A DNA stretch of 44,845 nucleotides. It comes from a virus. Its lineage: Duplodnaviria > Heunggongvirae > Uroviricota > Caudoviricetes. Below the pieces are notes generated by a model. It made no database searches. It was not told the DNA's origin and saw nothing but the letters and a program-made list of their open reading frames with translations. Position numbers and translations under genes: made by a program. This document shows positions 14,058 to 38,220 of this stretch, in pieces (within the stretch, counting starts at the first letter, position 1; every line of letters begins with the position of its first letter). The DNA is taken from the IMG/VR virus record IMGVR_UViG_3300045988_181891. The stretch is one strand, 5' to 3'.

Positions 14058-15530
14058 TTAGGCCGCCTCGTAATACACGGGTTCAACGGACCACTCGGAT
14101 GCTGCTTCGCAGAGGGCGGCGCCGTAGTTCACATCGGCAATCGAGACAGCACTGCTCACGTCGAGCGTTGAAAGACCGCATCGACCACCAAGGTTAGCGT
14201 TAGCACCACGAAGGCAGACACGAAAACCGGATGTAGCACCAGACGTATTCCAGAAATAGCTAGTCCAGTAGGTTGACTCGGATGCGCCCGTAGCGGTCGG
14301 GAAGTTCTCTAGATGCTCCATCGAGAGCGTCTTGATATAGCCTTCGCCCTTGGTCGGCGAGGTGCTGTAAGCCACCATGCCATCGGTGGAACCTATCGTC
14401 CACGTGCCGTAGATGGACGGTGCCACGAGATGGGTCACGGAAGTGTCCTCGTTGCAACGCACCTGCTCGTCATCCATGTGTCGCCACAATAAGCCGAAGC
14501 CATTTTTGTAGCCGAAGAAGGATGGTATCTTGGCGGTATAGACCACGGTGCCATCGTCTTTTTTGACCTCGTAGCTCGCCTCGCCGCAAGCGTCGCCAAG
14601 CTCGATGCCAGCCGACATCGGCACGACAGGGCGATAGCCGTTGTAACCACCCCAATCAGGCATCTGTGTCACGCCAGCGCCGAGACCACCCTGGTAGAGA
14701 CCGTTGGCATCTTTTTGGCTGTTGACGGCATCCTGGTCGTAGTGGGTGCCGAAGATGACCCCGAAGAGCACGGAGATGGCAGAGGTGTGGCGCATGGTGG
14801 TGCAGAGCCAGCCTGTGCCGTTTTTGCGGGCAGCAGCACGCCAGTATTCGGTAGTCTGGTTGGTGGCAGCCTTGCCCAGCATGGTGCGGTTGGTGTTATC
14901 TAACGTGGAGTCGTTGTTGCCGCCTCGGTAGTTTGTGCCCTCGTTGATGTAGCTCACCAGCTTGCCTGTGCTGCGCTCTAGCGTGGCGAAGCCAGCGGCG
15001 GAGATGCTGCCCACAGGTATCTTGTAATTGTACTCGCCTGGTATCGGCGTAGGGCTGACCATCTCGTAATGGAGTCTGCCCACGGTCTTGATGACCATGT
15101 ACCACTCCTTGCCCCAGCCCCACTGGTAGTGCCCCTCTGAGCCATCGAGCTTGGCTGTCTCGCCGGTGGCATACTTGTGGTGGTCTTTGGAGTCGAGCTT
15201 GCGACGGGAGTGGTCATTCTTGACCAGATAACAGCCCAGACCCAGCTCCGTTGGTAGGGTCTGCAGTAACTCTAGCGAGCCCACATAAGTGGCGGCTTTA
15301 GGGGTTGCATTGTCGAGGTTCCACACTCGACCACACCAAGGATGCTGTCCCATTTGGACGGCGCTTTTGAGCGACATCTGCTCAGACCTGCCGGATTTTT
15401 TGTCGAAGACCTCGACAATCTTGTCAGTGGCGCTCATGTCTGACTGTGGGAGGTCGTCAACCTGTTGACCTCCATCGAAAGCGGCTATGATAGCCTTGAG
15501 CTTACTCTCTTCTTCTGATGTTAATGCCAT
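14058..15530 (-). CDS. DGR target protein, putative receptor-binding structural protein with C-terminal variable region
   Basis: 490 aa from ATG at 15530 (ORF-track start 15578 is TTG); VR occupies the C-terminus; GFRVCLRG segment resembles the C-type-lectin/FGE-like fold of known DGR targets. Confidence 0.8.
   Translation of the reverse strand: MALTSEEESKLKAIIAAFDGGQQVDDLPQSDMSATDKIVEVFDKKSGRSEQMSLKSAVQMGQHPWCGRVWNLDNATPKAATYVGSLELLQTLPTELGLGCYLVKNDHSRRKLDSKDHHKYATGETAKLDGSEGHYQWGWGKEWYMVIKTVGRLHYEMVSPTPIPGEYNYKIPVGSISAAGFATLERSTGKLVSYINEGTNYRGGNNDSTLDNTNRTMLGKAATNQTTEYWRAAARKNGTGWLCTTMRHTSAISVLFGVIFGTHYDQDAVNSQKDANGLYQGGLGAGVTQMPDWGGYNGYRPVVPMSAGIELGDACGEASYEVKKDDGTVVYTAKIPSFFGYKNGFGLLWRHMDDEQVRCNEDTSVTHLVAPSIYGTWTIGSTDGMVAYSTSPTKGEGYIKTLSMEHLENFPTATGASESTYWTSYFWNTSGATSGFRVCLRGANANLGGRCGLSTLDVSSAVSIADVNYGAALCEAASEWSVEPVYYEAA
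14109..14230 (-). repeat. DGR variable repeat (VR) inside the 3' end of the target gene
   Basis: 122-bp copy of the TR; encodes ...GFRVCLRGANANLGGRCGLSTLDVSSAVSIADVNYGAAL..., ending 17 codons before the stop at 14058. Confidence 0.9.
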
Positions 15531-15552
15531 AATAAAAATTATATTTAATCGA

Positions 15553-16317
15553 TTAAACAATGCGTAATTTATCACCAACTTTTCTAAGCTTGCCCGATGC
15601 CGACAGGCGAAGGCGAGGCTGGCGCACGGTGATGCTGACCTCTTGCCAGAGCGGTGTGTTGGCGGTGGGGATGACCCAGAACTTGGTGGTGCCCTCGCCC
15701 TTGATGATGAGGTTGCCGCTTGGGTCTGCCACGAGCGAGTCGCCCTCGGCTCGCTGGAAGAGCACGCTCTGAGGGAGGTAGCTCGGCAGGATCTGCACGG
15801 CGATGCGCAGAGCCACCTTGTTGCGTAGGCTTATCTCGGGGAGATAGGTCAGGTTCATGCGAGCTGGCGCGATGAAGCCTGTGGTTATCTGAGCGGCGAG
15901 ACCATCCATCTGCGCTATCTTGGCATCGGCTCGCTTGGATGCCGCGTCAGCCTCTGCAGCCTTGGTCTCTGCCAAGGCTGCCTGTGATGCTGCAGCCTCG
16001 CCCTGCTCGCCAGCCGCCTTGGCTGCGCTCTGGGCGAGGTTAGCCGCCTTGTTGGCATCGTCGGCCGCACCCTGCGCTCTGACGGTCGGTGTCTTGTCGA
16101 GCCACAAGCGCCACTTGGCGTTGGTATCTGAAGGAGTCGTCGTGTTGCCATCCTCTAGGGAGGCGAAGACTCCTGACGATGTGTGAACGATGTCGCCCTC
16201 GTCGTAGCCCTTGACGGTCTGGCCATCCTCATCTTGATAGGAGTAGCCCGACTGCCAGGTGCCCTGGTCGGTGAAGGCGACATTGCCCACGATAATGATG
16301 TTTGTGTTATCTGCCAT
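15553..16317 (-). CDS. Hypothetical structural protein with Ala-rich coiled region
   Basis: ATG at 16317; 254 aa. Confidence 0.55.
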   Translation of the reverse strand: MADNTNIIIVGNVAFTDQGTWQSGYSYQDEDGQTVKGYDEGDIVHTSSGVFASLEDGNTTTPSDTNAKWRLWLDKTPTVRAQGAADDANKAANLAQSAAKAAGEQGEAAASQAALAETKAAEADAASKRADAKIAQMDGLAAQITTGFIAPARMNLTYLPEISLRNKVALRIAVQILPSYLPQSVLFQRAEGDSLVADPSGNLIIKGEGTTKFWVIPTANTPLWQEVSITVRQPRLRLSASGKLRKVGDKLRIV

Positions 16318-26802: not shown

Positions 26803-27114
26803 TTACTCTTCGGGCTGTGCGCAGTTGATTATCCAGACGAGTCTGCCACCCTCGACAGACTTCATCTTGAAGCCGTGCTCGACCATGTACTCGGTGATGA
26901 CGGAGATGGGAGCGACGACCATGCCGCTGATGGCCTCTTGTATATCTTTGGAGGATAGAAAGTCAACGCATTGGCTGTATGGGTCATCGCCCGGTGTGTC
27001 GCCATCGAAGTAAGCGTCGAGCGCCATGCGCACATAGTCGATCTTGCTCTCTTGCTCTGACTGTTGCTGCTCGTCGCTGTTGGCACTGAAGCCCATCACA
27101 CGCATACGTTTCAT
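26803..27114 (-). CDS. Hypothetical protein
   Basis: ATG at 27114; 103 aa. Confidence 0.5.
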   Translation of the reverse strand: MKRMRVMGFSANSDEQQQSEQESKIDYVRMALDAYFDGDTPGDDPYSQCVDFLSSKDIQEAISGMVVAPISVITEYMVEHGFKMKSVEGGRLVWIINCAQPEE

Positions 27115-27380
27115 GCCTCACCTCCTTTCGCCTCCAGTGCTATGTTGATGGTCTTGAAGAGCTTGCTCATGTGGTCGAAGTTGTTGAGCATGAGGAGCAC
27201 TTTGTCGGCACCGCCGAGGTCTTCGACACAGTTGGTCACCACCTCGTCTGAGATAAGCACCTTTTTGACTTGCTCAAGGTACTCGATGAAGTAGCTGAGC
27301 TGGTTGACATCCATCATTTCTACGAGCGCATTCCAGACCTCTGCTGTCATGTGCATATTTGTTGCGTTGTTTGTGTTCAT
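27111..27380 (-). CDS. Hypothetical protein
   Basis: ATG at 27380; 89 aa. Confidence 0.5.
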   Translation of the reverse strand: MNTNNATNMHMTAEVWNALVEMMDVNQLSYFIEYLEQVKKVLISDEVVTNCVEDLGGADKVLLMLNNFDHMSKLFKTINIALEAKGGEA

Positions 27381-27742
27381 GCTACGACTCCTCCCATCAG
27401 ATAACCACCAAAGAAAACCACTGCCATGAAGGCTGCGAAGCCTAGTGTGGCCTTGACCACCTCGCCGTAGGTCACGCTCTCGTCGCAGAGTGCGGTGAAG
27501 GTCTCGCTCTCGGTCTTGGCGAGCTTCTTGATTTCACACTTGAGGGTATTGATACCCTCCTCTACGCTGATGCCTGCAGGTCTCACCTGCGCATCACTAA
27601 TTAAAATTGAATTCTGCATAATTGCCATCTTATAACCATTATAGACCGATCTTGATGTATAAATACAATGGTGGCGGTCACATTCACCGTTGGTTATAAG
27701 ATGGTAGCTTTCCCAGCGAAGGTCAAGTATCTTACGGATCAT
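27377..27742 (-). CDS. Hypothetical protein with C-terminal transmembrane helix; start uncertain (27742 or 27628)
   Basis: Both candidate starts are ATG; a 10-bp inverted repeat sits at the internal start. Confidence 0.45.
   Translation of the reverse strand: MIRKILDLRWESYHLITNGECDRHHCIYTSRSVYNGYKMAIMQNSILISDAQVRPAGISVEEGINTLKCEIKKLAKTESETFTALCDESVTYGEVVKATLGFAAFMAVVFFGGYLMGGVVA
27629..27700. repeat. 10-bp perfect inverted repeat CTTATAACCA / TGGTTATAAG separated by 52 bp
   Basis: 27629..27638 and 27691..27700; a third copy CTTATAACC at 27868..27876 abuts the promoter box at 27882. Confidence 0.45.
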
Positions 27743-27881
27743 GCAACCGCCATATTGAAAAGACCTTTTTCCCGCTGCCGGGAAAATGATACTTTATAGG
27801 CATAAAAAAAGCCCACGGCGTGAAGCCTAGGCGAAACAGTCGCCATCGCTGAGTAGATTACTACTATCTTATAACCGATGG

Positions 27882-27889
27882 CAAAAGTA
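27882..27889 (-). promoter_or_regulatory. -7 promoter box TActTTTG (minus strand)
   Basis: Plus strand reads caaaagta. Confidence 0.35.
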
Positions 27890-28021
27890 CGAAGAATAAT
27901 TGGAACCGCCAAAAAAAAAGCGAGAAATTTTGAAATAAATGACTTTTTTATGTTTTAGAGCATAAAACAAGGGGGTGAGGAACGAAAAAGCCCCGGATGC
28001 TCACGCACCCGAGGCTGACAG

Positions 28022-28414
28022 TTATTTTTGGAAATAAACTTTTAAAGGGATTGAATTCTCCACATTGCCAATTTTGAAAGAGAACTGATAGTTGCCCTCT
28101 GCAGGGAACTGGAGGTCGGAGAACTCAAAGATGAAGTTGCTGAAGAGAAACTCATCTGAAGGGTGTGGCTCAATCTTGGAATTGATGGGCTGGCCAAGAA
28201 TCATCTTGCCAGTGCTCATCTCTGTAACCTCTGCCGAGAACTCTTGCTGAAGTTTGCTTTCCTCGCTGTTCATCTTAACTCTCGCTACCATGAAGAGGTT
28301 GTTCTTAGGCAGCGGTGCTTTTCTTACCACATAGTGGTCAAAAGTGCCCACGATGGTAAGTTTGCCGTCATTATCTTGTGCAAAGTCACACAATGCAAGA
28401 ATATCTATGTTCAT
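28022..28414 (-). CDS. Hypothetical protein, accessory cassette gene 3
   Basis: ATG at 28414; 130 aa; locally AT-rich. Confidence 0.5.
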   Translation of the reverse strand: MNIDILALCDFAQDNDGKLTIVGTFDHYVVRKAPLPKNNLFMVARVKMNSEESKLQQEFSAEVTEMSTGKMILGQPINSKIEPHPSDEFLFSNFIFEFSDLQFPAEGNYQFSFKIGNVENSIPLKVYFQK

Positions 28415-28851
28415 TTTATATGTCCTTTAATGTTAGACTCGATAGCCGAGTGTTTGAAAAGTTTTTTATAATTGTCGAATGAATATTTGAGTTTGCTCAC
28501 CGTGCGCTTGTTTGTGCTCACTAGGTTGGCTCCATGTCTGCCAGAGATGCCTTCCTTGGTATTGAACTTCAGAGAATTTCTTTTGGAGTCAACCCAAAGC
28601 CTGATGGCATCGCCTTGTATCTTGTCACCCACATTGCCATGGACGTTGAGATCTTCTCGTATTTTCTTGTCCTCTTCGTTGAGCTCAAGAGCTTCGGTGA
28701 TTTCTACGGAACTATTTCGGTCTAGTTCGTATAATGTCATCTTTTTGCCCGTGATAGGTTCCTCTTTGAGTCCCTTCCACTCAGCCCTTCTGGCAATGAC
28801 ATCAGCTTTTTTGCCCTCTATGATTTCACCTTCTTTGATATATATAGCCAT
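28411..28851 (-). CDS. Hypothetical protein, accessory cassette gene 2
   Basis: ATG at 28851; 146 aa; 4-nt start/stop overlap with the downstream gene. Confidence 0.5.
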   Translation of the reverse strand: MAIYIKEGEIIEGKKADVIARRAEWKGLKEEPITGKKMTLYELDRNSSVEITEALELNEEDKKIREDLNVHGNVGDKIQGDAIRLWVDSKRNSLKFNTKEGISGRHGANLVSTNKRTVSKLKYSFDNYKKLFKHSAIESNIKGHIK

Positions 28852-29279
28852 TATTGGATACTTTTTTGCATTGATTTTTCACTGAAAGAGAATACCTCAG
28901 CCATATCATCAGGCGAGGTGATGCTCATGAGCGATGGGCTGACCTCAAGAGCCACCTCAATGTCTTCAATGGAAGCATCTTTATCTTGTTTGATGATGTA
29001 CTTATCCTCATGCTCTTCAATCTCTTTATCAAACTCTTCTTCGGTAATATTGCCGTCAAGCATTTCGCAATATAGTTTGAAGTAGTTGCGCTCACGTGTG
29101 CGGTTGTTAACGGCACGAGTCATCAACTCCTTGAGTCTGTCGGCAGTACTAATGTTGAAAAAGTTAGCCTTATTGGTAACACCAGCGAATGCAACCTTGC
29201 CAGTACCTTTGTCTTGTATAGCCACAACAGGGCTGCCATCAGTTTGGTATGTTGTATATATAGTCGTTGTATTGCTCAT
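28851..29279 (-). CDS. Hypothetical protein, accessory cassette gene 1
   Basis: ATG at 29279, 31 nt downstream of a promoter box; 142 aa. Confidence 0.5.
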   Translation of the reverse strand: MSNTTTIYTTYQTDGSPVVAIQDKGTGKVAFAGVTNKANFFNISTADRLKELMTRAVNNRTRERNYFKLYCEMLDGNITEEEFDKEIEEHEDKYIIKQDKDASIEDIEVALEVSPSLMSITSPDDMAEVFSFSEKSMQKSIQ

Positions 29280-29317: not shown

Positions 29318-29439
29318 CGGTTATTTTTTGTAAATCGCAAATTTAATGATAAATTTAACAACAAAAATTGCAATAAAGATTGGAAAATGGTATATAAAGA
29401 ATGCTCGACCGCTTTTTGGCTCTTGCCAGACGCTTTCGC

Positions 29440-29488
29440 CGCAGGCGAAAATTTTTGGAAAATGAGGGGGAAGGTTTTAGCCTTCCCC
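29440..29488 (-). terminator. Terminator-like hairpin downstream of the RadC gene
   Basis: 8-bp stem GGGGAAGG / CCTTCCCC with 6-nt loop (29467..29488), followed on the minus strand by a T-rich tract; a second small hairpin lies at about 29436..29451. Confidence 0.35.
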
Positions 29489-29507
29489 TTACCTTATTAT
29501 ATATATA

Positions 29508-30191
29508 TTATAGCTTTCCTTTGTCGTGGTAGCTGTAGAAGCCATCCTCAGCCAAGATGATATGGTCCATCAAGAAAAGTCTCATCACCTCGCACGCCTT
29601 GGCTATCTTCTGCGTGAGCATATCGTCCGCCTTGCTCGGCTGCGTGCTGTTCGATGGGTGGTTGTGTGCCACGGCGATGATGGTTGCATTGTTGAGCACG
29701 GCTTCTTTCATTATCAGTCGAACGTCCACCGCTGTCTCGGTGATGCCTCCCTCGCTGAGCTTGGTGCACTTTATCAGCCTAAAGTTTTGGTTCATCAGCA
29801 CTACCCAAAAGCCCTCTGTCTCATTGCAGCCTATCATTGGGCGAAGATAGTTGTAGAGTGCCAGGCTGCTGCCTAGGTCGGTGTTTCTCGCTACCTTTTC
29901 CATTTGGTAGCGTCTGCCTAGCTCGATGGCTGCCTGTAGGGCTATCGCCTTGCAGTCTCCAATTCCTGGTACCACTTCCAGGTCTTCTATTCTCGCCTTG
30001 CCGATGTTGCGAAGCGAGTTGCCCATGATGTTATAAATCTGTCGTGCCTGCTCTTGGCTGTCCTTGGTACCTGCCCCTCTGTTGATTACCAAAGAAATCA
30101 AGTCAACGTTGGTAAGGGTGTCGAAACCTTGGTTATAGGCTCTGTACTGCGGTCTCTCCTCCATACAAAGATTGTTATAATTTTGTCTCAT
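29508..30191 (-). CDS. radC: RadC-like JAB/MPN domain protein
   Basis: Signature AHNHPSNSTQPSKADDMLTQ (HNHPSG..PS..D motif) and N-terminal helix-hairpin-helix segment VPGIGDCKAIALQAAIELGRR. Confidence 0.75.
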   Translation of the reverse strand: MRQNYNNLCMEERPQYRAYNQGFDTLTNVDLISLVINRGAGTKDSQEQARQIYNIMGNSLRNIGKARIEDLEVVPGIGDCKAIALQAAIELGRRYQMEKVARNTDLGSSLALYNYLRPMIGCNETEGFWVVLMNQNFRLIKCTKLSEGGITETAVDVRLIMKEAVLNNATIIAVAHNHPSNSTQPSKADDMLTQKIAKACEVMRLFLMDHIILAEDGFYSYHDKGKL

Positions 30192-30206
30192 ATCTTTTGT
30201 TATTTG

Positions 30207-30731
30207 TTAGTTATACATTCTCTTTGTTCTCGCTAGGAACATCGCTCCCATCACTTGTGCGCCACATTCGGCTAGCTCGTTGGCGAACTCTCGGGCGGTC
30301 GCTCCGCTCGTCACCACGTCGTCGAAGATGATGACTTTCTTTCCGCTGAAGTACTCTCTATCGAGTGCCACTCTGTAGTCGAAGCTCTCACACACTCTGT
30401 CTGTGCTGAAGTGCTTGGCTGTGCGCTCTCCATAGATGGAAATGTGCTCGTTTCCGTTCTGTACCTTTGCGCCTTGGCTCACCTTTTGGGCGAAGCGAGA
30501 AAAGCGCTTGGTGTACTTCTTTGAGTTGGCTGCTGGAGCGCAAACCATCACGAAGTCGCTGGCTTTGTCGCCATAGGTGTTGACGAAAGAGCTGACCACC
30601 ATATCGGCAGCTGCGTCTGTCGCCCACTGCTTTCCATCCTTGAAGGCAAAGATGAAGTTTCTCACTTGCTCTGCTTGTGCTGAGCGGTCGAAACGCTTGG
30701 AGCTGTACTCGTAATAATTGAAAGTTTTCAT
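30207..30731 (-). CDS. Phosphoribosyltransferase-domain protein (ComF-like PRTase)
   Basis: PRPP-binding motif KKVIIFDDVVTSGATAREFANEL near the C-terminus; ATG at 30731. Confidence 0.6.
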   Translation of the reverse strand: MKTFNYYEYSSKRFDRSAQAEQVRNFIFAFKDGKQWATDAAADMVVSSFVNTYGDKASDFVMVCAPAANSKKYTKRFSRFAQKVSQGAKVQNGNEHISIYGERTAKHFSTDRVCESFDYRVALDREYFSGKKVIIFDDVVTSGATAREFANELAECGAQVMGAMFLARTKRMYN

Positions 30732-30779
30732 ACGCTTAAAATTTTTATTCTAGCCAGAGGGAGGAAGGAGCTTTTTTAT

Positions 30780-31629
30780 TTGAACTCGTCTTTGCCTGCC
30801 CGTCTGAGAGTTTTTTTTATTCTGTCCGTCGGTCGTTTTTGTCGCTTTTTACGGTGCGATGCAGACGAGCGGAGAAGAGGTATGAAAGCCAAGGAATTTT
30901 GCAAAAAGTTTATGGAAAACCGTCATCTCTGATTGCGGAAGGCTGCCGAAAAGTTTTTGGAAAATAGATTTATCGGTACTTGGTGCATGCCGTCCGCCGT
31001 ACCTTTGCACCCGAAAAAGAGATAATGACCGATGGATAACCGATAAAGGGAAAAGCTCTCGGACAGGAAAAGCGGGCAAAGAAAAGGCTCTGCCTTACCT
31101 TGGTGGTTAAGCCTTAGCGACGTTTGAGCGCCATCACGGTCACTACCGCTTGAAAATTCGCAAATTTTAACCATAGCGTATGAAATGAAAGATGGAAAAT
31201 TTGCGTCATCAAAAACACCATGTTTTTCAGACTTTAGGAGGAAAAACATACCTTGGAGCGATGAAATCGCAGCATTTGGCATGCTTCGACCCCGAGGTTG
31301 AAGATGCCGAATGTGTCGTTTTGCGACAGGTTTTCCACACCCACGGATTGGAAAACCCCGATTTTATCGTGGTTTTAGGGATTCAAAGGGAAAATAATTC
31401 CCCTTTGTCGGCGATAGCACCCCCCACCGCCCTACGCCCGAGCGCGCCTTCCGCCCCCTTGGAAAAGACGGAATATGTAAAAGACCGTTAACGTTTTTGT
31501 AGGAATGTAAAAAGCCAAAAGGCACGAAAAAAGGGAACACGCTTCGCAGCGCACTCCCCTTATCGGCGGTCAAGCAAGAATGCCAGCCACCTAACTTATA
31601 TAAGAATCGTACTATCTAAAGAAATCAAA
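30780..31629. other. 850-bp ORF-poor region between the terminase and accessory genes; candidate non-coding RNA or packaging-related cis element
   Basis: No convincing ORF on either strand; plus-strand promoter box at 31000; C-rich tract around 31420..31465; a 7-bp stem hairpin around 31390..31415. Confidence 0.3.
31000..31007 (+). promoter_or_regulatory. Plus-strand -7 promoter box TAccTTTG inside an otherwise minus-strand region
   Basis: The 12-mer GTACCTTTGCAC is identical to the one in the host tRNA promoter (1173..1184). Confidence 0.35.
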
Positions 31630-33231
31630 CTATAGCATGGAACCCGTGGCGATGTAGCCATCAGCCTGAGGGTATTTCTCCATGCCAATCATGAGCGTGT
31701 CGTAGGCATCGGAGCCATCGGTGCGAGCCTCCAACTTATCCTCCTCGGTCTCAGCCAGCTTCTCGCCTCGCTTATCCTTCTTGCCGTTGTAGACCCCGGC
31801 CAGGCGGATGGAGATGAGCAGGTCTTCGTTGTTCTCGCTGTTGATCATCGAGCGATGCTCAGCCTTGCCGAGGAACATGCGGTTGAGCAGAAGCATCTTT
31901 TCGAGATGTCCCATCGGGTTGCCCAGATAGACCTCGTTGACATACCAGCCATGGTCGGTGAGGTAGTCGGTGATGAAGGTATGGAAGTCATCGTTCATCA
32001 GGGCGTAGTTGTTGCCCACGAAGGTGGAGTCGTAGTAGAAGTTGACCTCTTTGCACCGATGGTACTCATAGTACTGCATGAACTTGTCGAGCAGGGCTGG
32101 CAGCTTCTCCTCATACTTCACGAAGATGCTCTTGAGGCAGCGTGCCTCGCCCCGCAGGTTGTCTTGTCCGACGGCTATCCAGTTGATGAGGGCGTTGGCA
32201 TCGAAGGCGATGCAGAGCGGACGGTCGGGGTCAACGTCGGCATCCATTCTGGAATCTACATGCTTGAGCTTGTCGATGTCGTAGCCCAAGCCATCGAGGT
32301 AGGCGAGGTTGGGCGCCGTGTATAGGTTGGCATCCCTGAGGTTGGAGTAGAAGCCATCGAGCGAGATGGAAGGTCGCTTGCACATGATGGAGGTCTGGAA
32401 GGTGAGGGCAGGGAGGTCTCGCTTCATCTGCTTGATGAACTCCATGCCGAGCACCTCGATGTTATAGACCGATGAGTACTCTTTATAGAAGAGTGCCTTG
32501 GAGCGCAGTTGCGCCAGGAGCTGACCAATCTCTCGGAGTCGGCGCTGGGCATAGCCTGAGACATGGCCCGAGGTCTTGATGCGGTTGCGTATGTCATACT
32601 CCTCTACCACGAGCGAGGCGATGGCGTCGATGAGCAGCTGGTCGCAGTCTTTCTTGTAGTTGAGGAACCAGGAGCCCTTCTTGGTCACGGGCATATCAGA
32701 GGTGATGAGCATGCCATGGTGGTAGTAGTGCTGGCCGAAGAGGTTGACGTTGCCTCGATTGGCAGGGAAGGTCTCGTCTTTGAGCTGTTCGAAGTTGATG
32801 AACTTCGCCTCGTCGATGTCGAGGTAGTCGAGCGAGAGGGAGTTGGAGGTACCCTTGCGGTCTTGCGAGATGATGGTACCGATGGAGCCGTTATAGAAAG
32901 AGATGGTGTTCTCCCAGTTGCTGGGCGGTATGACCGGGTCGGGCCATCCCAGTTTTTTGGGAGGCTTGACCCCGATGAGATAATGCTTGCCCCGGTGGAA
33001 GCCCCATCGCTCCCAGTGCTGAAGCATCGACGGTATGGTGTTGGTGAGGCATCGCTTGGTGTTGGCGGATACGAAGCCGCCGTTGCTGCCAGGCATGCGC
33101 TGCATGTTGCGCAGGTTGAAGGTGGCGTGGAGAATGCTCTTGCCGATGCCTCGACCGCCCACGACCACGTTGTCGCGGGCGGAGATGAGGTTGACCTCCA
33201 TCTGGGCTGGGTTGAGATATTGATCTATCAT
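31630..33231 (-). CDS. Terminase large subunit
   Basis: Walker A VVGGRGIGKS, Walker B-like LDYLDIDEA, C-terminal acidic nuclease-type region; start/stop overlap with the upstream small gene. Confidence 0.8.
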   Translation of the reverse strand: MIDQYLNPAQMEVNLISARDNVVVGGRGIGKSILHATFNLRNMQRMPGSNGGFVSANTKRCLTNTIPSMLQHWERWGFHRGKHYLIGVKPPKKLGWPDPVIPPSNWENTISFYNGSIGTIISQDRKGTSNSLSLDYLDIDEAKFINFEQLKDETFPANRGNVNLFGQHYYHHGMLITSDMPVTKKGSWFLNYKKDCDQLLIDAIASLVVEEYDIRNRIKTSGHVSGYAQRRLREIGQLLAQLRSKALFYKEYSSVYNIEVLGMEFIKQMKRDLPALTFQTSIMCKRPSISLDGFYSNLRDANLYTAPNLAYLDGLGYDIDKLKHVDSRMDADVDPDRPLCIAFDANALINWIAVGQDNLRGEARCLKSIFVKYEEKLPALLDKFMQYYEYHRCKEVNFYYDSTFVGNNYALMNDDFHTFITDYLTDHGWYVNEVYLGNPMGHLEKMLLLNRMFLGKAEHRSMINSENNEDLLISIRLAGVYNGKKDKRGEKLAETEEDKLEARTDGSDAYDTLMIGMEKYPQADGYIATGSML

Positions 33232-33857
33232 AGTGCTTTGTCCTCCTTGACTTCTTCTGTAGGTGTATATTCCAAGAGCTGTTCGTCGTAGTCCTCGGCC
33301 TCGATCTTGACGAGATCCATGGAGTTGTCGGTGTATTTCTTGACGAGCTTCTTGATGGTCTGCATCACGTTAGGGATGCGCTTGAGACCCAAGTGTCGTG
33401 GGTCGGTGGTAGGGATGAAGACCTGAGGCTGAATCTGGTCGTAGCCGTTGTCGGTAGGATCCTCTTTGTCGAGCAGGTGATATTTGCCGTATGCAGCTGC
33501 GGCGGCAGCCATGGCTCGGGCATCGCCCATGGAGTCGGCCTTGTCGTAGGTGCGCTGTATCATCTGGTCGAAGCGATAGCGGGCGAAGTCTTTTGACACT
33601 TTTTGCAGGTTGCCCAATATGAGCTTGATGAGGTGCAGGTCGTTGTAAGCCATCATGCGCTGCACCTTGTAGTCGTGCATATCTTTATAGACCAGCTCTT
33701 GGTCGCTCTTGCGAGGGTTGATGAGCCACCAGGCATAGAGGGCACGGATGCGCAAAATGCGGTCGCGCACTGGGGCGGGCACATTTTGCGCATCCATCTC
33801 TTCGGGTGTGCGGTCCATCAGTTCGATGATGGCATCGATGTTGGCGGGTTCTCTCAT
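33228..33857 (-). CDS. Putative terminase small subunit (by position)
   Basis: 209-aa gene whose stop overlaps the TerL start (ATGA); no diagnostic motif. Confidence 0.4.
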   Translation of the reverse strand: MREPANIDAIIELMDRTPEEMDAQNVPAPVRDRILRIRALYAWWLINPRKSDQELVYKDMHDYKVQRMMAYNDLHLIKLILGNLQKVSKDFARYRFDQMIQRTYDKADSMGDARAMAAAAAAYGKYHLLDKEDPTDNGYDQIQPQVFIPTTDPRHLGLKRIPNVMQTIKKLVKKYTDNSMDLVKIEAEDYDEQLLEYTPTEEVKEDKAL

Positions 33858-34135
33858 ATTCTAATCTCCTCTAACATTTGGTTCAGATATTCGTGTGTGC
33901 GCTGCACCGCCTGTGGCGAGCCAGCCGCAGCCAGGTCTAGCTCGTTTTTGCGTATCTGCTGGCGCACCGTCGCCATGCCCAAGTAATAGACACGGTGAAG
34001 CTCGGAGTCGGGCTTCAGTATCTCGTCACGCAGATCGTCCTCGCTAATATCCAAAAGGACGGACATCTCGGATATCGGAGTCAACGTCTCCGCGAAGTCT
34101 TGCACTTTTTTGAGTAATTCCTGAGAAATTTCCAT
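33854..34135 (-). CDS. Hypothetical small protein, translationally coupled to the putative small terminase
   Basis: ATG at 34135; stop overlaps the next start; overlaps the upstream gene by about 90 nt, so the true start may be internal. Confidence 0.4.
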   Translation of the reverse strand: MEISQELLKKVQDFAETLTPISEMSVLLDISEDDLRDEILKPDSELHRVYYLGMATVRQQIRKNELDLAAAGSPQAVQRTHEYLNQMLEEIRI

Positions 34136-34619
34136 TGATTCTTAAGCTTTGAGTGTCACAATGAAGGGTATATCCGCCGAAGAGGTCGGCGAAGACCTGC
34201 GGGTCGGTGGTGATGATGGTTGACTCGTCACGGCTGCCGTAGGTCTGGTTTTGCGAGGTGACGACCGACACGACGTGCTGGTCGTTGCGGAAGAGTGTCA
34301 CCTTGGAGTGGTTTTGCCCCAGGAACACATCGTCGAAGCAGGTCTGCATCATGCGCCACAGCTGCACGGTCTTTTTGCTCGCCTTGACATCGAGCAGCAT
34401 CGTTGCTGACAGGATGCTGCCCGACTGGCGCATCAGGCGGAAGCCTCGCAGGAACTCCTCGGAGGTGGAGTAGGAAGACACCCACACATCTGCAGGGCCT
34501 ATCTGGGAGAGAATCCACTTGATGAGACCGAGGGTGTGGAGGTGCCGCCCGAAGTAGGCTTGCGTCTGGGCATCGGCGATAGGACGGAGCAGGTCACTGA
34601 CCTTGACCTTGGTCGGCAT
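34044..34619 (-). CDS. Hypothetical protein
   Basis: ATG at 34619; 191 aa. Confidence 0.5.
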   Translation of the reverse strand: MPTKVKVSDLLRPIADAQTQAYFGRHLHTLGLIKWILSQIGPADVWVSSYSTSEEFLRGFRLMRQSGSILSATMLLDVKASKKTVQLWRMMQTCFDDVFLGQNHSKVTLFRNDQHVVSVVTSQNQTYGSRDESTIITTDPQVFADLFGGYTLHCDTQSLRINGNFSGITQKSARLRGDVDSDIRDVRPFGY

Positions 34620-35337
34620 TGGCGGCTAGCTTAGCCTTGGCTACACGGTCACGGTCGGCATTGGTAACCTGGTATGAGTCGTAGGTGAGCATGTCGGCAC
34701 GATAGCGCTTGTCGAGGTCGGAGAGTATCTTGAGAAGCTCGTATCGGTCGCATGGCTCAAGGCGCTCCATCGTCTTGAGCGTCTCGAAGGTCGATTTAAT
34801 CTGCTTGTATCGCTTGGCGTTGGCATCCCAGAGAGCGGCAACCTCGGCAGGAAGGAACTCATGGTCGCTGCGCTTGCCCTTGCGGATGACCGCCACGCCA
34901 TCGCTCTCGGAGGAAGGCAGCTCGGCATCATCGGTCGAGCCATCATCGTCGATGGAATCGGCATTTTTTGCGATTTCATTGCCATTTTCGTCGGTTTCAT
35001 CGGTCTTTTTGGTCGTTTTCTCGGTCGTATCGGTCGTTTCTTCGGTCGTTGCCACAGGTACGCCCTCACTGATGATGGCTTGCGCCTCTGGTATGACGAT
35101 GGCATCCATCTGCTTGACCTCTTCGATGGTCATGCCATCGAGACGAATCTTCAGGAACTTATTCAGCTCATACTCGATGTTGGTGCGATAAACCTGTGGC
35201 TGTCGGGTGGCACGGAAATGGTAGAAGCGATTGCGGTTGAGACGGAAGAGCATGTCTGCGCCCTTGATGATGTCAGCGTCGCTCTCGTGCTTGGCATTGA
35301 GCCACGCCTGTATCTGTTTGGTGAATTGATGATCCAT
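34594..35337 (-). CDS. Hypothetical acidic protein
   Basis: Start placed at ATG 35337 (MDHQFTKQ...) just downstream of the terminator at 35353..35397; the ORF-track N-terminus reads through the terminator. Confidence 0.45.
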   Translation of the reverse strand: MDHQFTKQIQAWLNAKHESDADIIKGADMLFRLNRNRFYHFRATRQPQVYRTNIEYELNKFLKIRLDGMTIEEVKQMDAIVIPEAQAIISEGVPVATTEETTDTTEKTTKKTDETDENGNEIAKNADSIDDDGSTDDAELPSSESDGVAVIRKGKRSDHEFLPAEVAALWDANAKRYKQIKSTFETLKTMERLEPCDRYELLKILSDLDKRYRADMLTYDSYQVTNADRDRVAKAKLAANADQGQGQ

Positions 35338-35352
35338 ATATAAGAATGTTTT

Positions 35353-35397
35353 TGATGAAAAGAACAAAGGTGGCTCAGGCACGAAGCGAGAGCCACC
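35353..35397 (-). terminator. Rho-independent terminator (minus strand)
   Basis: 8-bp stem GGTGGCTC / GAGCCACC with 13-nt loop, followed on the minus strand by TTTGTTCTTTTCATC. Confidence 0.45.
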
Positions 35398-35453
35398 TAA
35401 GCTTTGAAGTTTAAACCGTATGTAGTTATGCAAAAATTTGGGCAAATGAACGT

Positions 35454-36050
35454 TTATGCCGCCTCCCATACAGAGCCATCGGAACCCTTGATGTCTCCGG
35501 ACTCAGTCTCGATCTTGCCAGGATAGAACGGTGTAGGGCAGAAGTCTGTCGCCTCGGTGTTGACGGTCGTGGTGCAAGCATCGGTCACGCCGCTGCCTGA
35601 TGCCTGGCTGACGGTAATCTTAGGTGCGAATGCCTCGCAGCCGATGAGACGGGCACGACCCTTGCGGTCTTGCACCATCATGATGAGCTCGTCGTTGATA
35701 GCCATGGTAGCGAAGCCACTGATGTCCTCGTCGGTACCACCCACCACGAACTCGCCTTTGTTGAGGAACGTAGCGGAAGGTGCCTCGCCCTGAGTCTCTG
35801 CAGTAAAATTGCTCTTGGCATCTACGAGGTCGAGACTGTGCCACTTGGCATCGCTCGCCAAGGTGAAGTCGCCTGTATATTGAGCCAGCTTAGCTGGGTC
35901 TGTGGTCTCGTCAGTTGCCGCTGGCAATGTTGGCCAAGTCAGAATCTGACTCTTCAAGATGAAGAAAACACGAGGGCGAACGCCTGGGGCTATGCGAGCC
36001 CCAGGACATTTCTTAACTGATTTATATAAATCTTTTGTATTACAAGCCAT
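35454..36050 (-). CDS. Hypothetical structural protein following the capsid gene (decoration or head-tail candidate)
   Basis: ATG at 36050; 198 aa; followed by a terminator. Confidence 0.5.
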   Translation of the reverse strand: MACNTKDLYKSVKKCPGARIAPGVRPRVFFILKSQILTWPTLPAATDETTDPAKLAQYTGDFTLASDAKWHSLDLVDAKSNFTAETQGEAPSATFLNKGEFVVGGTDEDISGFATMAINDELIMMVQDRKGRARLIGCEAFAPKITVSQASGSGVTDACTTTVNTEATDFCPTPFYPGKIETESGDIKGSDGSVWEAA

Positions 36051-36083
36051 AATTTTATCTCCTATATATAATAAGGTGAAACT

Positions 36084-37193
36084 TTACTCCTTGCCCTCAG
36101 CTCCGGTATCGTCTGCAGAAGAATTCTTCTGCTCTGCATCGCTAGCTGTGTTGCTGCTTGCAGGATCAGCACCTGAACCCTTTGTGATGAGCGATGTGGT
36201 ACCATCGTTTGTGATGAACAGGGCTCGTTCTTTATTGATGCTCTCGTACTGGCAACCTAAGAACTTGGTGGCGATGAAGTCGAGCTTCCAAGGGTGGTAC
36301 TTTTCTACGCTGATCTTCTCCTCGTCGCTGTTGTTTGCCTCGTTGACACCCACGAGCATATTGTTGCGAGTGGTGAGCTGGAAGAACGGAGCGTTCTTCT
36401 TGTTGATGAGTGGTACCATCTCAACGTTGTCGAAACCCTCGACGGTGTTGTGGTTGTAACCGGTATTGTATGGCACATTGCCAAACTTATTGAGGTAGTT
36501 GCGGTTGTAGAGATTGATGAACGCCTGTGGAACGTAGAGATAAAGCTTCTCTTCGCCAATCAGTTCTTCGTCAGCCTCCTCGCAAATGGCCTGTGCGAAG
36601 TCAACGGCGTTATCGCTGCTGATATTCTTACCACTGCCCAAAATATCTGAAACTTTGATGAGGTTGCCGAGGTCTCGAGACAGCTTGCCATTAGTCAACT
36701 CAGTCTTGGCGATGGTATCGAAACCATTGAAGAGGTCTTTTGAGCCTTTGCCCTCGTCGTTGCGCACGGCATCGAAGAGGTGGAGGTTGAGGTTCTTGCC
36801 CAGCTTGAGCGCCAAGAGCTGCAGCACCTGAAGGGTGATTGGCACGTTCTTAAGCGCTTCGCCATTCATGGCGTTGGCCCCCCAAATGGTGGAATAAACT
36901 GAGTTCGGGGAGAACTTGATGTCAACGTTGCCGAGGAACACCTGCAAAGTGCGAGGTGTAATCTTTACGCCACCATCGCCCACGCGGTTCTCGTCGTATG
37001 GACCAAACTCTGCGTTGCCGAGCAACTCGCCCACGGTCTCTGAAACTCTGATGCCCGGGCGCAGGGTCATGTACTTGAGTGACTGAGCCAAGCCTTTGGT
37101 AGGCATCGTAATCAACTTCGAACGGTAAGTTTTCGCAGTGTTCTGCAGCTGTACATCGACATCTACAGGCACAATGAATTTATTATCTGCCAT
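36084..37193 (-). CDS. Putative major capsid protein (by position after the prohead protease)
   Basis: 369 aa from ATG at 37193 (ORF-track start 37202 is TTG); directly follows the ClpP-type protease gene and is followed by a terminator. Confidence 0.5.
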   Translation of the reverse strand: MADNKFIVPVDVDVQLQNTAKTYRSKLITMPTKGLAQSLKYMTLRPGIRVSETVGELLGNAEFGPYDENRVGDGGVKITPRTLQVFLGNVDIKFSPNSVYSTIWGANAMNGEALKNVPITLQVLQLLALKLGKNLNLHLFDAVRNDEGKGSKDLFNGFDTIAKTELTNGKLSRDLGNLIKVSDILGSGKNISSDNAVDFAQAICEEADEELIGEEKLYLYVPQAFINLYNRNYLNKFGNVPYNTGYNHNTVEGFDNVEMVPLINKKNAPFFQLTTRNNMLVGVNEANNSDEEKISVEKYHPWKLDFIATKFLGCQYESINKERALFITNDGTTSLITKGSGADPASSNTASDAEQKNSSADDTGAEGKE

Positions 37194-37194
37194 A

Positions 37195-38220
37195 TTATGC
37201 AAACTGATTTAAAACATCCAACACTTGATCTGAGCAGAAATCCTCGACCTTGGTGTCATCGACAGCAGTGTGCGTGTCGCCACCAGGCTCTCCCTCCAGA
37301 TCCTTCACTTTATCCTTCAGGTCATCTCTCTCCTTTTCGAGATTCTTGACCTTAGTCTCTAACTCCTTCTTCTCGTCCTTGACCTTCTGAAGCTCTGTGT
37401 CTTTGTCGGTCACGGCCTTGGAGTCGGCAGCGATCTTATCCTCCAGTTTCTGCATCTGCTCCTGTGAGATTGTGCAGTTCTTTGCGGAATCTTCTGCCTC
37501 AATGCCCTCGATATTGAGGACATTGTTGATGTGAGTCCATTTTTTGATCATATTAATAATTTTATTTTGTGATTTATCTTTGCCGAATAATCGGTCGATG
37601 ATGCTTGGCTTTTTATCATACCAGGAGTTAACAACCTCTGGGAGAACAGGAAGGTTGTTGTACTTGATGAAGTCTTGCGTCTGCTCGGTGATGTCGGCAG
37701 GCTTGCCATCCATGGCTTCATCGACGAGACCCAGTTCGATGCACTCATCGACGGTGTGCCACATCGCTTCGGACATCACCTTGACGATGTCCTCGTGCTT
37801 CTTGCCCGAGCGATCGCAGTAAACGTTGGCGATGATGTTGTCGATTTTCTGCTGGTTCTCTTGCTGTTTTTGAAGTTGCTCGATGAGCGAGCCTATCTGC
37901 TCCTCGTTGAGCGCAGACCACACAAACTGCTCGGTAGAGCACTTGTGTACCAGGAGCAAGCTATATTTGCTCATGCGAATCTTGCTGGCACCCATCGCAC
38001 AGATGGTGGCAGCAGAGGCAGAGAAGCCCGCCTGGAAGTCAACGGTCACGTCGCCATGGGACTTGAACATCTGACAGATGGCGAGACCTGCGGAGACCTC
38101 GCCACCCAAGGAGTCGATGGCAACATCGACGTGCTTATCTTTGTTGGCCTTAAGAACATCGCGAACCATGAGCTTGGTCCACGAGCCAATATATCCTGTG
38201 ATAGAAATTTGGTACTTCAT
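37195..38220 (-). CDS. ClpP-family prohead protease with C-terminal coiled-coil (scaffold-like) extension
   Basis: ClpP signature IDSLGGEVSAGLAI and GFSASAATICAMGASKIRMSKYSLLLVHK; C-terminal about 100 aa is K/E-rich coiled coil. Confidence 0.8.
   Translation of the reverse strand: MKYQISITGYIGSWTKLMVRDVLKANKDKHVDVAIDSLGGEVSAGLAICQMFKSHGDVTVDFQAGFSASAATICAMGASKIRMSKYSLLLVHKCSTEQFVWSALNEEQIGSLIEQLQKQQENQQKIDNIIANVYCDRSGKKHEDIVKVMSEAMWHTVDECIELGLVDEAMDGKPADITEQTQDFIKYNNLPVLPEVVNSWYDKKPSIIDRLFGKDKSQNKIINMIKKWTHINNVLNIEGIEAEDSAKNCTISQEQMQKLEDKIAADSKAVTDKDTELQKVKDEKKELETKVKNLEKERDDLKDKVKDLEGEPGGDTHTAVDDTKVEDFCSDQVLDVLNQFA

Follow-up and report, generated by a model that had tools for sequence, protein, structure and literature searches.

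What does a phosphoribosyltransferase (PRTase) do next to a RadC-like protein behind the terminase gene of a tailed phage? The question is raised by two open reading frames (ORFs) that exactly bound positions 29508-30731 of the stretch of viral DNA analyzed here (44,845 nucleotides; hereinafter, the window), both on the minus strand. The first gene (30207..30731) encodes a PRTase of 174 aa, recognized from the ORF, its motif and a PF00156 match as a ComF/ShosT-like type I enzyme, and the second (29508..30191) a full-length RadC of 227 aa, recognized from the ORF, its motif and profile matches; they are separated by 15 nt (30192-30206), one fewer than given in the preliminary description of this locus. 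That description placed the pair between packaging and structural modules. The packaging side stands, the terminase gene TerL (31630-33231, minus strand) being located upstream; the structural side is less certain, as the genes just downstream, small unannotated ORFs followed by large ones, gave no family matches that would identify them as structural. A PHROGs search with the neighboring genes yielded a weak match for TerL only, and megablast against cultured phages detected no nucleotide similarity. Elsewhere, the window encodes a tape-measure-like protein, a ClpP-type protease, and an integrase adjoining tRNA-Met.

The first protein belongs to the type I phosphoribosyltransferases. It matches the Pfam Pribosyltran profile (PF00156) with 29.7 bits (cut-off 26.3, E 4.5e-7), and its PRPP loop, VIIFDDVVTSGATA (aa 133-146), consists of a hydrophobic strand, two acidic residues and T/S-G-x-T; residues K31, R76, R103, D137, D138 and T141 are invariant among homologues of 25-100% identity. 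The comF profile TIGR00201 aligns with aa 21-168 (E 1.6e-7), its 31.5 bits being far under the cut-off of 233.55. Among the PADLOC profiles, ShosT matches aa 9-171 with E 1.6e-9, over profile positions 63-213 only, and PsyrT matches with E 9e-9 over profile positions 554-685 of 689. The AF2 model (pLDDT 87.3, pTM 0.83) has the alpha/beta PRTase core fold, and a Foldseek search with this model returned 237 PDB matches at E <= 0.001, among which the top 50 listed are all PRTase-fold proteins. The best matches are Helicobacter pylori ComF (7p0h, TMq 0.55) and ShosT (8zvc, TMq 0.54), ComF equaling ShosT and generic PRTases, with TMq 0.40-0.51, being not far behind. At the sequence level, only the PRPP loop resembles the solved ShosT (ShosT residues 330-368, E 0.9). 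Ordinary ComF proteins were the next relatives in the homology search, and the true ComF matches carry PF18912; in the cassette protein, the N-terminal zinc ribbon is missing, with neither a PF18912 match nor a Cys cluster in the 174 aa, and so is the PPase-like N-domain, leaving the PRTase domain alone. A protein database search matched only contigs of uncultured human faecal “Bacteriophage sp.”, at no more than 35% identity.

The second protein is a full-length member of the RadC family with an intact JAMM site, in which an N-terminal helix-hairpin-helix (HhH; UPF0758_N) domain precedes a JAB/JAMM domain. It matches Pfam RadC (PF04002) with E 1.2e-35, UPF0758_N (PF20582) with E 7e-12 and 45.7 bits (cut-off 27.1), TIGR00608 with 152.9 bits, over the cut-off of 133.85, and PDB entry 2qlc with E 1e-14; the score against the housekeeping equivalog NF000642, 175.5 bits, is just below the cut-off of 180. 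The JAMM segment, HNHPSNSTQPSKAD (aa 176-189), retains the pattern E...HxHx7Sx2D, and residues E126, H176, H178, S186 and D189 are invariant across eight partner RadCs of 32-100% identity. One RadC variant is indexed in 222 blocks of the collection. Overall, the searches with ComF, PRTase and RadC profiles confirmed both domain assignments of the preliminary description, including the JAB motif and the HhH segment of the RadC-like protein.

The two genes are part of a self-contained cassette of ~1.63-1.77 kb, comprising a leader, the PRTase gene, the RadC gene and a terminator, which is optional in a temperate phage of Segatella (Prevotella) copri. Of the phages whose TerL shares at least 92% identity with that of the window, 33 carry the leader, PRTase and RadC, 21 lack all three, and one retains a remnant. 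Given that the absence in the 21 relatives is a clean indel of 1.63-1.77 kb, the cassette is accessory, in agreement with the original proposal. In pairwise blastn comparisons, the indel edges were 31150-29383 against the cassette-less loci L234 and L265, and 31043-29414 against L278, so that the largest extent of the presence/absence segment is 29383..31150 (minus strand). The left edge of the leader is the indel boundary in L278. At the other end, homology with cassette-less relatives restarts at 29382 or 29413, just past a terminator-like GC-rich hairpin (29467..29488, minus strand), which is located ~20 nt past the RadC stop codon and forms the 3' end of the cassette; the gene that follows has promoter boxes of its own. 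The cassette, which is horizontally exchanged, is seated in a non-coding stretch after the terminase gene. A coding explanation of this 900-nt gap between TerL and the PRTase gene was considered and rejected: the 119-aa ORF at 30923-31282 is not conserved in relatives, which differ there by indels of lengths not divisible by three and have no gene called in this region. The 5' half of the gap (31151-31629) was likewise considered as a part of the cassette and rejected; this half belongs to the phage backbone, as cassette-less relatives retain it and conjugative-type copies lack it.

The PRTase-RadC pair is not a chance pairing of ORFs. As the co-occurrence analysis proposed in the preliminary description revealed, more than 60 related contigs retain it, the identity of the PRTase ranging from 27% to 100%, and it is found in several phage clades, behind terminases of 29%, 52%, 56% and >90% identity. 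It is also present in a mobilizable element (L213) with a Mob_Pre relaxase, where the cassette genes point toward the relaxase gene. At every locus examined, the PRTase family is confined to phage or mobile-element contexts. The cassette is very common among phages of Prevotella/Segatella, a dominant genus of the human gut, and therefore may influence how phages interact there with their hosts and with plasmids.

The partner of the PRTase is not always RadC. Short-form PRTases (about 170-220 aa) precede either RadC or YpsA/SLOG proteins, which are DprA-like. Combined ORF and HMM detection in 78 distinct sequences found a RadC partner in 52 and a SLOG partner in 5, and about 10 more loci (L016-L021, L036, L039, L044 and L115) have a RadC that was detected by tblastn only, having been missed by the ORF caller, which accepts ATG starts only. 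By ORF/HMM detection, 13 leader-bearing short-form PRTases appeared partner-less; most of these have RadC by tblastn, and the rest are located too near a locus end for a partner gene to be recognized. RadC-only cassettes exist as well, as do long-form PRTases without a partner. In the PRTase-YpsA sister cassettes, the PRTase is 30-36% identical and occupies the same position behind the leader element, with a leader copy directly upstream of the pair in L219 and 2.4 kb upstream in L041 and L042. RadC, then, occupies the slot of the DprA/SLOG partner, and this positional replacement is the sole ground on which an equivalence of their roles can be suggested because RadC and DprA share no fold. 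This alternation of partners, the minus-strand orientation of the genes, the structured leader upstream and the exact boundaries of the cassette had all been overlooked in the preliminary description.

The leader (30732..31043, minus strand; ~310 nt), recognized by an nhmmer profile match at 31043-30786 and by conserved blocks, consists of a structured core followed by an A-rich tract, AAAAAAAACTCTC..., that extends up to the PRTase start codon. Its blocks are conserved across phage clades, and no gene is called there in relatives; the invariant blocks of the core are GCAAAGGTA, CAAG, GGCAGCCTTCC, GGTTTTCC, TTCCTTGG and CGTAAAAAG. The core (30845..31008, minus strand) is a hairpin element with helices P1, P2 and P3, and matches the covariance model R1, built on the ~170-nt core, with 127.4 bits (E 3.7e-23). 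In the covariance model alignment, 82.9% of the cells were paired, compared to 65% in shuffled and 39-50% in slid controls, and 28 of the 40 pairs changed on both sides; in a structure-blind MAFFT alignment, the corresponding values were 70.8% and, for the controls, 56.7% and 41-52%. The structure covaries within the phage lineages as well. Conjugative-type copies fold strongly (z -5.5; L088 fold), and the sense RNA does so to the same degree (z -5.95), whereas the copy in the window is not thermodynamically stable (z about 0). A comparison of the folding strands by wobbles gave 87 GT vs 81 AC, practically equal counts that favor neither strand.

The same element is found elsewhere in front of cassettes encoding ArdA (E 1.6e-32), an orphan methylase (MTase-DUF4942), WYL_2 and LPD11, and its copies often form same-orientation arrays. 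The hairpin was also considered as an integron attC site, a reading that was rejected because cassette-less sites keep no copy of the element; furthermore, inspection of the phage copies revealed no GTTRRRY/RYYYAAC pair of R''/R' core sites. When the window and five loci (L131, L088, L091, L171 and L111) were scanned against Rfam 15, radC, DUF2693 and other Bacteroidales motifs included, the leader matched no family, whether the gathering threshold or E <= 1 was applied, and literature searches, with limited coverage of full texts, returned no published description of either the leader or the PRTase-RadC pair. The leader may be new.

Within the 5' arm of the hairpin, Bacteroidetes-type promoter boxes can be read from the sequence on the plus strand (30979..31007): CTTG, a 17-nt spacer, and TACCTTTG. 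Such boxes are present in 65 of the 68 distinct copies, in the form [C/T]TTG, a spacer of 16-19 nt (mode 18), and TAnnTT[T/C]G. In duplex DNA, they point away from the cassette genes; in the folded template strand, by the orientation worked out from the sequence, they would be directed into them. Boxes on the sense strand were found in none of 62 cores, and in 4 of 62 upstream and 1 of 62 downstream regions.

The leader could be a single-strand promoter similar to Frpo, inherited from conjugative elements; a structured 5' UTR RNA regulating the cassette in cis; or a mere outward duplex promoter combined with a protein-binding site. We rank the Frpo-like promoter at or slightly above the leader RNA, and both above the duplex promoter, with some hesitation. 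The Frpo-like promoter is favored by the placement of the whole promoter within the hairpin stem in the orientation that suits transcription of the cassette from the folded template strand, by the lack of sense-strand boxes, by the single-orientation arrays and by the strong folding of the conjugative-type copies, but phage DNA enters the cell as a duplex, and the window copy hardly folds. For the leader RNA, the covariation within phage lineages and the stable fold of the sense RNA can be adduced, but no promoter was found that would produce such an RNA. The invariant sequence blocks are compatible with a duplex promoter, but a plain duplex site would not be expected to covary.

What could the cassette do for the phage? 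Most likely, it is used in conflicts with the host or with rival elements and not in virion building. The context of mobile-element conflict invoked in the preliminary description is supported by the PADLOC matches, the sister cassettes with DprA-like YpsA, the leader shared with ArdA, methylase and LPD11 cassettes, and the occurrence in an element with Mob_Pre. We tentatively favor, at somewhat less than an even chance, a conflict or establishment module analogous to ShosTA, in which RadC would be the partner on the DNA side. In ShosTA, the toxicity of ShosT depends on PRPP, and the DprA-like antidote ShosA binds ssDNA and RecA but does not bind the toxin directly (PMC11961720, PMC12961424). 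By analogy, the PRTase would be the effector and, like ShosT, would bind PRPP and interfere with nucleotide metabolism or DNA replication, whereas RadC, with its intact JAMM metal site, would be tethered to DNA through the helix-hairpin-helix domain and might offset or direct the activity of the PRTase from the DNA side, as ShosA does via ssDNA and RecA. The pair could then act as a type-IV-like toxin/antidote module for exclusion, for abortive infection or for the element's own establishment. The leader that is common with anti-restriction cassettes would imply that the pair is expressed alongside them, at or soon after DNA entry. Against a toxin/antidote relation speaks the lack of the PPase-like N-terminal hydrolase domain that, in the solved ShosT (432 aa), precedes the C-terminal PRTase and is reported to be coupled to toxicity (PMC11961720). 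So do the restriction of direct sequence similarity to the PRPP loop, the RadC-only cassettes and the long-form PRTases that have no partner. A retron-like arrangement, with the PRTase as effector and the leader as the non-coding RNA, was rejected: no reverse transcriptase adjoins the cassette, and the match to PADLOC PRTase_III-A is weak (E 2.4e-4).

Among the alternatives to the ShosTA-like module, the one that fares best, and that we consider possible albeit with a lower probability, is a cooperative pair without any toxin/antidote relation, which would assist establishment or counter defense by protecting, processing or marking DNA that is incoming or single-stranded, or by acting on a nucleotide signal of the host, so that the element survives the host defenses just after entry. 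ComFC, DprA and RadC are all tied to the handling of incoming ssDNA in competence, which fits such a role, as do the arrays of cassettes behind the same leader and the mobilizable element in which the genes face the relaxase. The company kept by the leader, ArdA and the orphan methylase, argues equally for a cooperative anti-defense role and for a toxin/antidote pair. Additionally, plasmid leading regions collect genes of this kind behind single-strand promoters (PMC11541004), and Iyer et al. have proposed that the PRTases and RadC of invasive elements act early in invasion, also discussing the link between the PRTase and ComFC (PMC5512222). Nevertheless, a tailed phage injects dsDNA, making an ssDNA-handling role less obvious there; in profile searches, neither the PRTase nor RadC matched a known anti-defense family; and the closest experimentally studied PRTase-partner systems, ShosTA and PsyrTA, are toxin/antidote defense systems (PMC11961720, PMC12961424).

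Improbable, in our assessment, is the possibility that the location next to the terminase and head genes is itself functional, the two proteins being expressed late, packaged in the capsid and co-injected with the DNA in the manner of solo polyvalent domains. In phages, PRTase domains occur most often as fusions with MuF head proteins, and those standing alone adjoin structural genes (PMC5512222); the pair directly follows TerL on the same strand and has no canonical sense promoter of its own. However, a terminator-like hairpin, read by eye, is located 3' of TerL, the cassette is dispensable in the 21 close relatives, the same cassette resides in a mobilizable element that has no capsid, and Pfam searches with the pair detected no MuF or other packaging-targeting domain. 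Very unlikely is the derivation of the pair from ordinary host genes of metabolism and repair, namely, a PRTase of nucleotide salvage and a housekeeping RadC, neither involved in conflicts: the near-threshold NF000642 score of RadC and weak matches of the PRTase to the APRT, OPRT and HGPRT models are in its favor, but no salvage equivalog reached its cut-off (16-25 bits each vs cut-offs of 100-300), the pair is found in many related phages and the PRTase family only in phage or mobile-element contexts at the loci examined, the commonest “Prevotella RadC” relative is itself phage-borne and adjoins a PRTase, and the leader comes and goes together with the PRTase and RadC genes.

To our knowledge, RadC is one of the most widespread proteins of bacteria to which no function has yet been assigned. 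That it occupies the gene position where PRTase toxins have their DprA-like antidote yields a concrete, testable hypothesis for its role. The hairpin leader provides a sequence handle for finding unknown anti-defense and establishment genes in mobile elements of Bacteroidota and, if it is indeed a single-strand promoter, would show that the Frpo principle also applies in a phylum whose promoters follow another grammar. A more sweeping proposal, which we hold to be rather doubtful as a whole, is that the leader is an undescribed Bacteroidota counterpart of the Frpo-type promoters or a new structured leader RNA, defining hairpin-led cassettes (ArdA, orphan methylases, WYL_2, LPD11, PRTase-YpsA, PRTase-RadC and many unknowns) that are swapped between conjugative or mobilizable elements and tailed phages, and that PRTase-RadC is a new two-enzyme conflict module in which RadC would acquire a defined role for the first time, by serving a ComF/ShosT-type PRTase on the DNA side.

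Among known elements, the radC RNA motif, said to have been described by Weinberg et al. in 2010 upstream of radC, anti-restriction, DNA-methyltransferase and integrase genes, keeps the same gene company as the leader; the leader falls outside this motif because the Rfam 15 scans of the window and the five loci gave no match at E up to 1. Like the Frpo/ssi promoters, the leader is an extended, imperfect hairpin whose stem contains both promoter boxes, which are oriented to the downstream genes from the folded template strand, and it is repeated, in one orientation, ahead of anti-restriction, methylase and similar genes (PMC11541004). The arrays in one orientation and the cassette genes that face the relaxase gene in L213 are suggestive of a location on the transferred strand of a leading region. 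It differs in that its boxes are of the Bacteroidetes -33/-7 type and not sigma-70 -35/-10, there is no sequence similarity, and dsDNA phages retain the element too, albeit with a weak hairpin; its use as a promoter on ssDNA is putative.

The proteins themselves have several counterparts. As indicated above, ComF 7p0h is the best structural match of the PRTase, and RadC is full-length like chromosomal RadC, but the cassette PRTase differs from ComFC in having no double zinc ribbon (PF18912) and scoring below the TIGR00201 cut-off, its neighbors are TerL and RadC, with no ComFA helicase at the locus, and the genes are phage-borne and optional. The early-invasion “polyvalent protein” domains of invasive elements, as catalogued by Iyer et al. 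(2017, PMC5512222), include the PRTase (ComFC-like, with a conserved Arg), RadC, ArdA and LPD11. In the same work, solo domains adjoining structural or transfer genes are described, RadC is found only in the polyvalent proteins of conjugative elements, and the PRTase mainly in Proteobacteria and Verrucomicrobia; here, in contrast, the cassette consists of separate small proteins, a PRTase-RadC operon with a dedicated leader.

Closer still are the two-component systems. PRTase-YpsA is a strongly coupled, conserved gene pair (PMC6459960), in which the second gene encodes YpsA/SLOG, compared to RadC here. PsyrTA/RqlHI, a RecQ-like helicase-PRTase fusion with a DprA-like protein, for which the logic of joining a PRTase to a DNA-uptake protein has been noted (PMC5512222), has a homologous PRTase domain, but the cassette lacks the helicase domain and has RadC as the partner. 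With ShosTA, the cassette shares the arrangement of two genes, a PRPP-binding PRTase and a DNA-associated partner, and the sister cassettes join the same PRTase family with a YpsA/SLOG protein of the DprA superfamily. The differences are that the cassette PRTase, at 174 aa, comprises the PRTase domain only, vs the 432-aa ShosT, that the partner is RadC (HhH and JAB) whereas ShosA is a SAM-plus-DprA protein, and that the cassette resides in a phage of Bacteroidota, its genes being preceded by a structured leader. Overall, the cassette belongs in one class with ShosTA, PsyrTA/RqlHI and PRTase-YpsA: in all these modules of mobile elements, a PRTase of the ComF type, which binds PRPP, is joined to a partner on the DNA side.

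The interval 29508-30731, read for open reading frames (ORFs), consists of two minus-strand genes and nothing else: a 174-aa type I phosphoribosyltransferase (PRTase; 30207-30731), with the PRPP-loop motif VIIFDDVVTSGATA, and a 227-aa RadC protein (29508-30191), with the motif HNHPSNSTQPSKAD. The preliminary description put these genes 16 nt apart, but the actual spacing is 15 nt; its identification of the two proteins was borne out by profile searches, which matched both domains. The PRTase is a member of PF00156 (Pfam Pribosyltran, 29.7 bits; gathering cut-off 26.3) and, in a defence-system library, is matched by the ShosT profile (E 1.6e-9) and by the PRTase end of the PsyrT profile (E 9e-9); matches to salvage-PRTase profiles are weak, every one far under cut-off. 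Its AlphaFold model (pLDDT 87, pTM 0.83) shows a type I PRTase fold, with the top two TM-scores for Helicobacter pylori ComF (7p0h, 0.55) and ShosT (8zvc, 0.54), compared to 0.40-0.51 for ordinary salvage PRTases. The second protein belongs to the RadC family (Pfam RadC, E 1.2e-35; TIGR00608 score over cut-off), contains an N-terminal UPF0758_N (HhH) domain, and matches the one solved RadC JAB domain (2qlc, E 1e-14). Across the relatives of the pair, the catalytic residues are unchanged: K31, R76, R103, D137, D138 and T141 of the PRTase and the JAMM motif of RadC (E126, H176, H178, S186, D189).

The pairing itself, which the preliminary description had treated as meaningful, recurs across phage clades and in a mobilizable element. 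Among the fetched relative loci (L numbers), the PRTase is directly followed by RadC behind large terminases (TerL) that are >90%, 56-57%, 52% and ~29% identical to that of the window, as well as in L171 and L221 and, with a PRTase of only 27% identity, in a chromosomal mobilizable element that encodes a Mob_Pre relaxase. The very abundant “DNA repair protein RadC [uncultured Prevotella sp.]”, 59% identical to the window RadC, is phage-borne and lies directly behind a 219-aa PRTase. It is the RadC of a further phage clade (L223/L224, 3340-4681, and L283-L298; TerL 52% identical), in which the PRTase is 39% identical and has no Pfam match, and the leader is vestigial at most (7 bits in L224).

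In five loci (L041, L042, L219, L220 and L222; PRTase 30-36% identical), the second gene instead encodes YpsA/SLOG, a DprA-superfamily protein. Among the 78 distinct PRTase sequences from the fetched loci, all short forms (about 170-220 aa) are adjoined by RadC or SLOG wherever the downstream sequence suffices: 52 by RadC and 5 by SLOG, as detected by ORF calling and HMM searches, with the RadC neighbour of ~10 more found by tblastn only. Artefacts and locus-end cases aside, the partner-less PRTases are N-terminally extended forms of 272-311 aa, two of which are 230 and 320 aa in the gene calls. Four loci (L045; L046, 7572-8507; L047; L218, 5001-5963) encode long-form PRTases of 305-320 aa with a ~140-aa unannotated N-terminal extension and no adjoining RadC or SLOG; that of L046 is near PcfJ and PcfK, and that of L218 is near an integrase, with a YpsA gene 4 kb off. 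In L041 (7086-9538), on a contig classed as viral, PRTase-YpsA has as neighbours a PP2C phosphatase, a 291-aa protein without annotation and an AbiEi-like regulator, an arrangement that resembles a small defence island. The conservation of the PRTase-YpsA gene pair, whose function is unknown, has been noted before (PMC6459960).

The TerL stop and the PRTase start are separated by 898 nt (30732-31629) that contain no conserved ORF; relatives have no called genes in this gap, indels in its alignments are not multiples of three, and its conserved blocks persist where PRTase is ~50% and TerL 29-57% identical. Among phages with TerL at least 92% identical and enough downstream sequence, leader, PRTase and RadC are all present in 33 and all missing in 21, and a remnant of RadC is left in one. 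In phages without the cassette, homology to the window extends from TerL to 31151 and restarts at 29382 (in one of them, L278, it stops at 31044 and restarts at 29413), just past a terminator-like hairpin at 29467-29488. Because homology breaks in this manner, the optional segment can be delimited to 1.63-1.77 kb. Besides PRTase, RadC and the terminator, it takes in the 310 nt at the 3' end of the gap, which form the leader; the 5' 480 nt (31151-31629) are phage backbone outside the cassette. This non-coding backbone stretch, kept in cassette-less relatives and missing from conjugative-type copies, contains internal inverted repeats and folds with z-scores of -4.3 (plus strand) and -3.3 (minus) against shuffles; by eye, a terminator-like hairpin follows TerL at about 31533-31559. 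Bacteroidetes -7 boxes of its own, at 29345 and 29317, precede the next gene past the cassette (28851-29279). Six small ORFs lie in series after the cassette on the minus strand (26803-29279); searches with four of them gave no PHROG match and, for two of these, no Pfam match either. The region past RadC varies among close relatives, and 26803-29279 resembles a hotspot for accessory genes.

The window is a temperate tailed phage or prophage, with an integrase (1405-2568) adjoining tRNA-Met (1213-1288), TerL (31630-33231), a tape-measure-like 1448-aa gene and a ClpP-type protease (37195-38220, minus strand), after which a 372-aa ORF is a possible capsid gene. In the direction of transcription, the protease and this ORF come before the terminase genes (33228-38220, minus), a module order unusual for a tailed phage. 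IMG/VR contigs of 43-44.6 kb are near-identical to the window, identical copies of PRTase and RadC are present in a Segatella copri MAG, and no cultured phages resembling the window were found. An Rfam RT-17 RNA match (13541-13642, minus strand; 59.9 bits, gathering score 40.4) is flanked by ORFs 11915-13558 and 14058-15578, neither with a Pfam match at E <= 0.001; RT-numbered motifs are named for their position near reverse-transcriptase genes.

The leader (30732-31043) also occurs outside the PRTase phages. A search pattern of two of its invariant blocks, GGCAGCCTTCC...CGTAAAAAG, recovered it in 45 viral stretches and >120 metagenome stretches, about two thirds of the latter upheld by a profile. 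Beyond the PRTase phages, the genes directly 3' of it encode ArdA (E 1.6e-32), an orphan methyltransferase with DUF4942, WYL_2 (formerly DUF2693), an LPD11 protein, RadC alone, or small unknowns; the RadC-only cassettes, without PRTase, are those of L225 (1818-2828) and L226. Often, four to six leader copies follow one another in the same orientation, one per small cassette (L131, L170, L205, L219). Full-scoring copies number six in L131 (1-11424), four in L170 and five in L205, where the locus end truncates two of them; L131 and L170 have additional weaker, divergent copies, and nhmmer gives three or four matches in L219 (371-2939). The repeat unit of L131 is up to about 925 nt and contains a 78-aa ORF.

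The leader core of ~170 nt forms one long imperfect hairpin with basal, middle and apical helices and invariant internal-loop blocks, a fold that covariation supports. When 19 diverse copies are aligned by MAFFT, blind to structure, 70.8% of cells pair, compared to 56.7% in shuffles and 41-52% in slid registers, and both sides change in 27 of 40 base pairs; in a covariance-model alignment of 68 distinct copies, the corresponding values are 82.9%, 65.4% and 39-50%, with a covariation score of 0.393 versus 0.133. A conjugative-type copy is far stabler than shuffles (z -5.5 as DNA, -5.95 as RNA), whereas the window copy is no stabler than they are (z about 0). The leader matches none of the Rfam 15 families, including the radC RNA motif of Proteobacteria, which has the same kinds of gene next to it.

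The reverse complement of the invariant 5' block of the leader, GCAAAGnTA, is TAnCTTTGC, the Bacteroidetes -7 box, for which Bayley et al. in 2000 reportedly gave the consensus TAnnTTTG. On the strand opposite to the cassette, [C/T]TTG, a 16-19 nt spacer (mode 18) and TAnnTT[T/C]G are found in 65 of 68 copies; in the window, these read as CTTG (30979-30982) and TACCTTTG (31000-31007) on the plus strand. In duplex DNA, this predicted promoter fires away from the cassette. Sense-strand boxes are absent from the leader core (0/62 copies) and rare around it (4/62 in the 400 nt upstream, 1/62 in the 200 nt downstream). Both boxes sit within the hairpin stem, so that, if the template strand folds, they would form the non-template strand on its 3' arm, with transcription leaving the hairpin base and entering the cassette genes. 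[quoted passage not shown] The leader may instead act as an RNA leader, given the equal counts of GT and AC wobbles (87 vs 81), the weak folding of the phage copy, and the duplex state of phage-delivered DNA.

Most likely, the whole is an accessory cassette that serves a mobile element in conflict or establishment, rather than in virion, packaging or salvage functions. In the best-supported, still tentative reading, PRTase-RadC might be a ShosTA-like effector/antidote pair in a moron-like cassette, used in the conflicts of the element. In ShosTA, the PRTase ShosT is a toxin that depends on PRPP and interferes with purine metabolism and with DNA replication, and a DprA-like partner neutralises it without binding, via ssDNA and RecA (PMC11961720, PMC12961424). 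RadC would fill the slot of that partner. Independently, Iyer et al. argued for RadC as an enzyme that processes nucleic acids, and for a role at DNA entry of the PRTases of invasive elements, which are ComFC-like and share a conserved Arg (PMC5512222). The main rival, a cooperative establishment or anti-defence pair, is somewhat less likely. Identity with ComF proper (no zinc ribbon; comF TIGR00201 match with E 1.6e-7 and 31.5 bits against a cut-off of 233; no ComFA neighbour) or with ShosTA proper (PPase-like N-domain missing; partner not DprA; sequence similarity of the window PRTase to the solved ShosT confined to the PRPP loop, E 0.9) is rejected, the likeness to these systems being one of architecture only.

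The components and the general theme of the cassette are already known. A limited literature search found no description of the PRTase-RadC operon as a conserved optional cassette, of the RadC-for-SLOG partner exchange, or of the shared hairpin leader, and the main interest lies in the leader element and in a testable handle on RadC function. As to the effector/antidote reading, ShosTA, PsyrTA/RqlHI and PRTase-YpsA each combine a ComF-type PRTase with a DNA-uptake-type partner.
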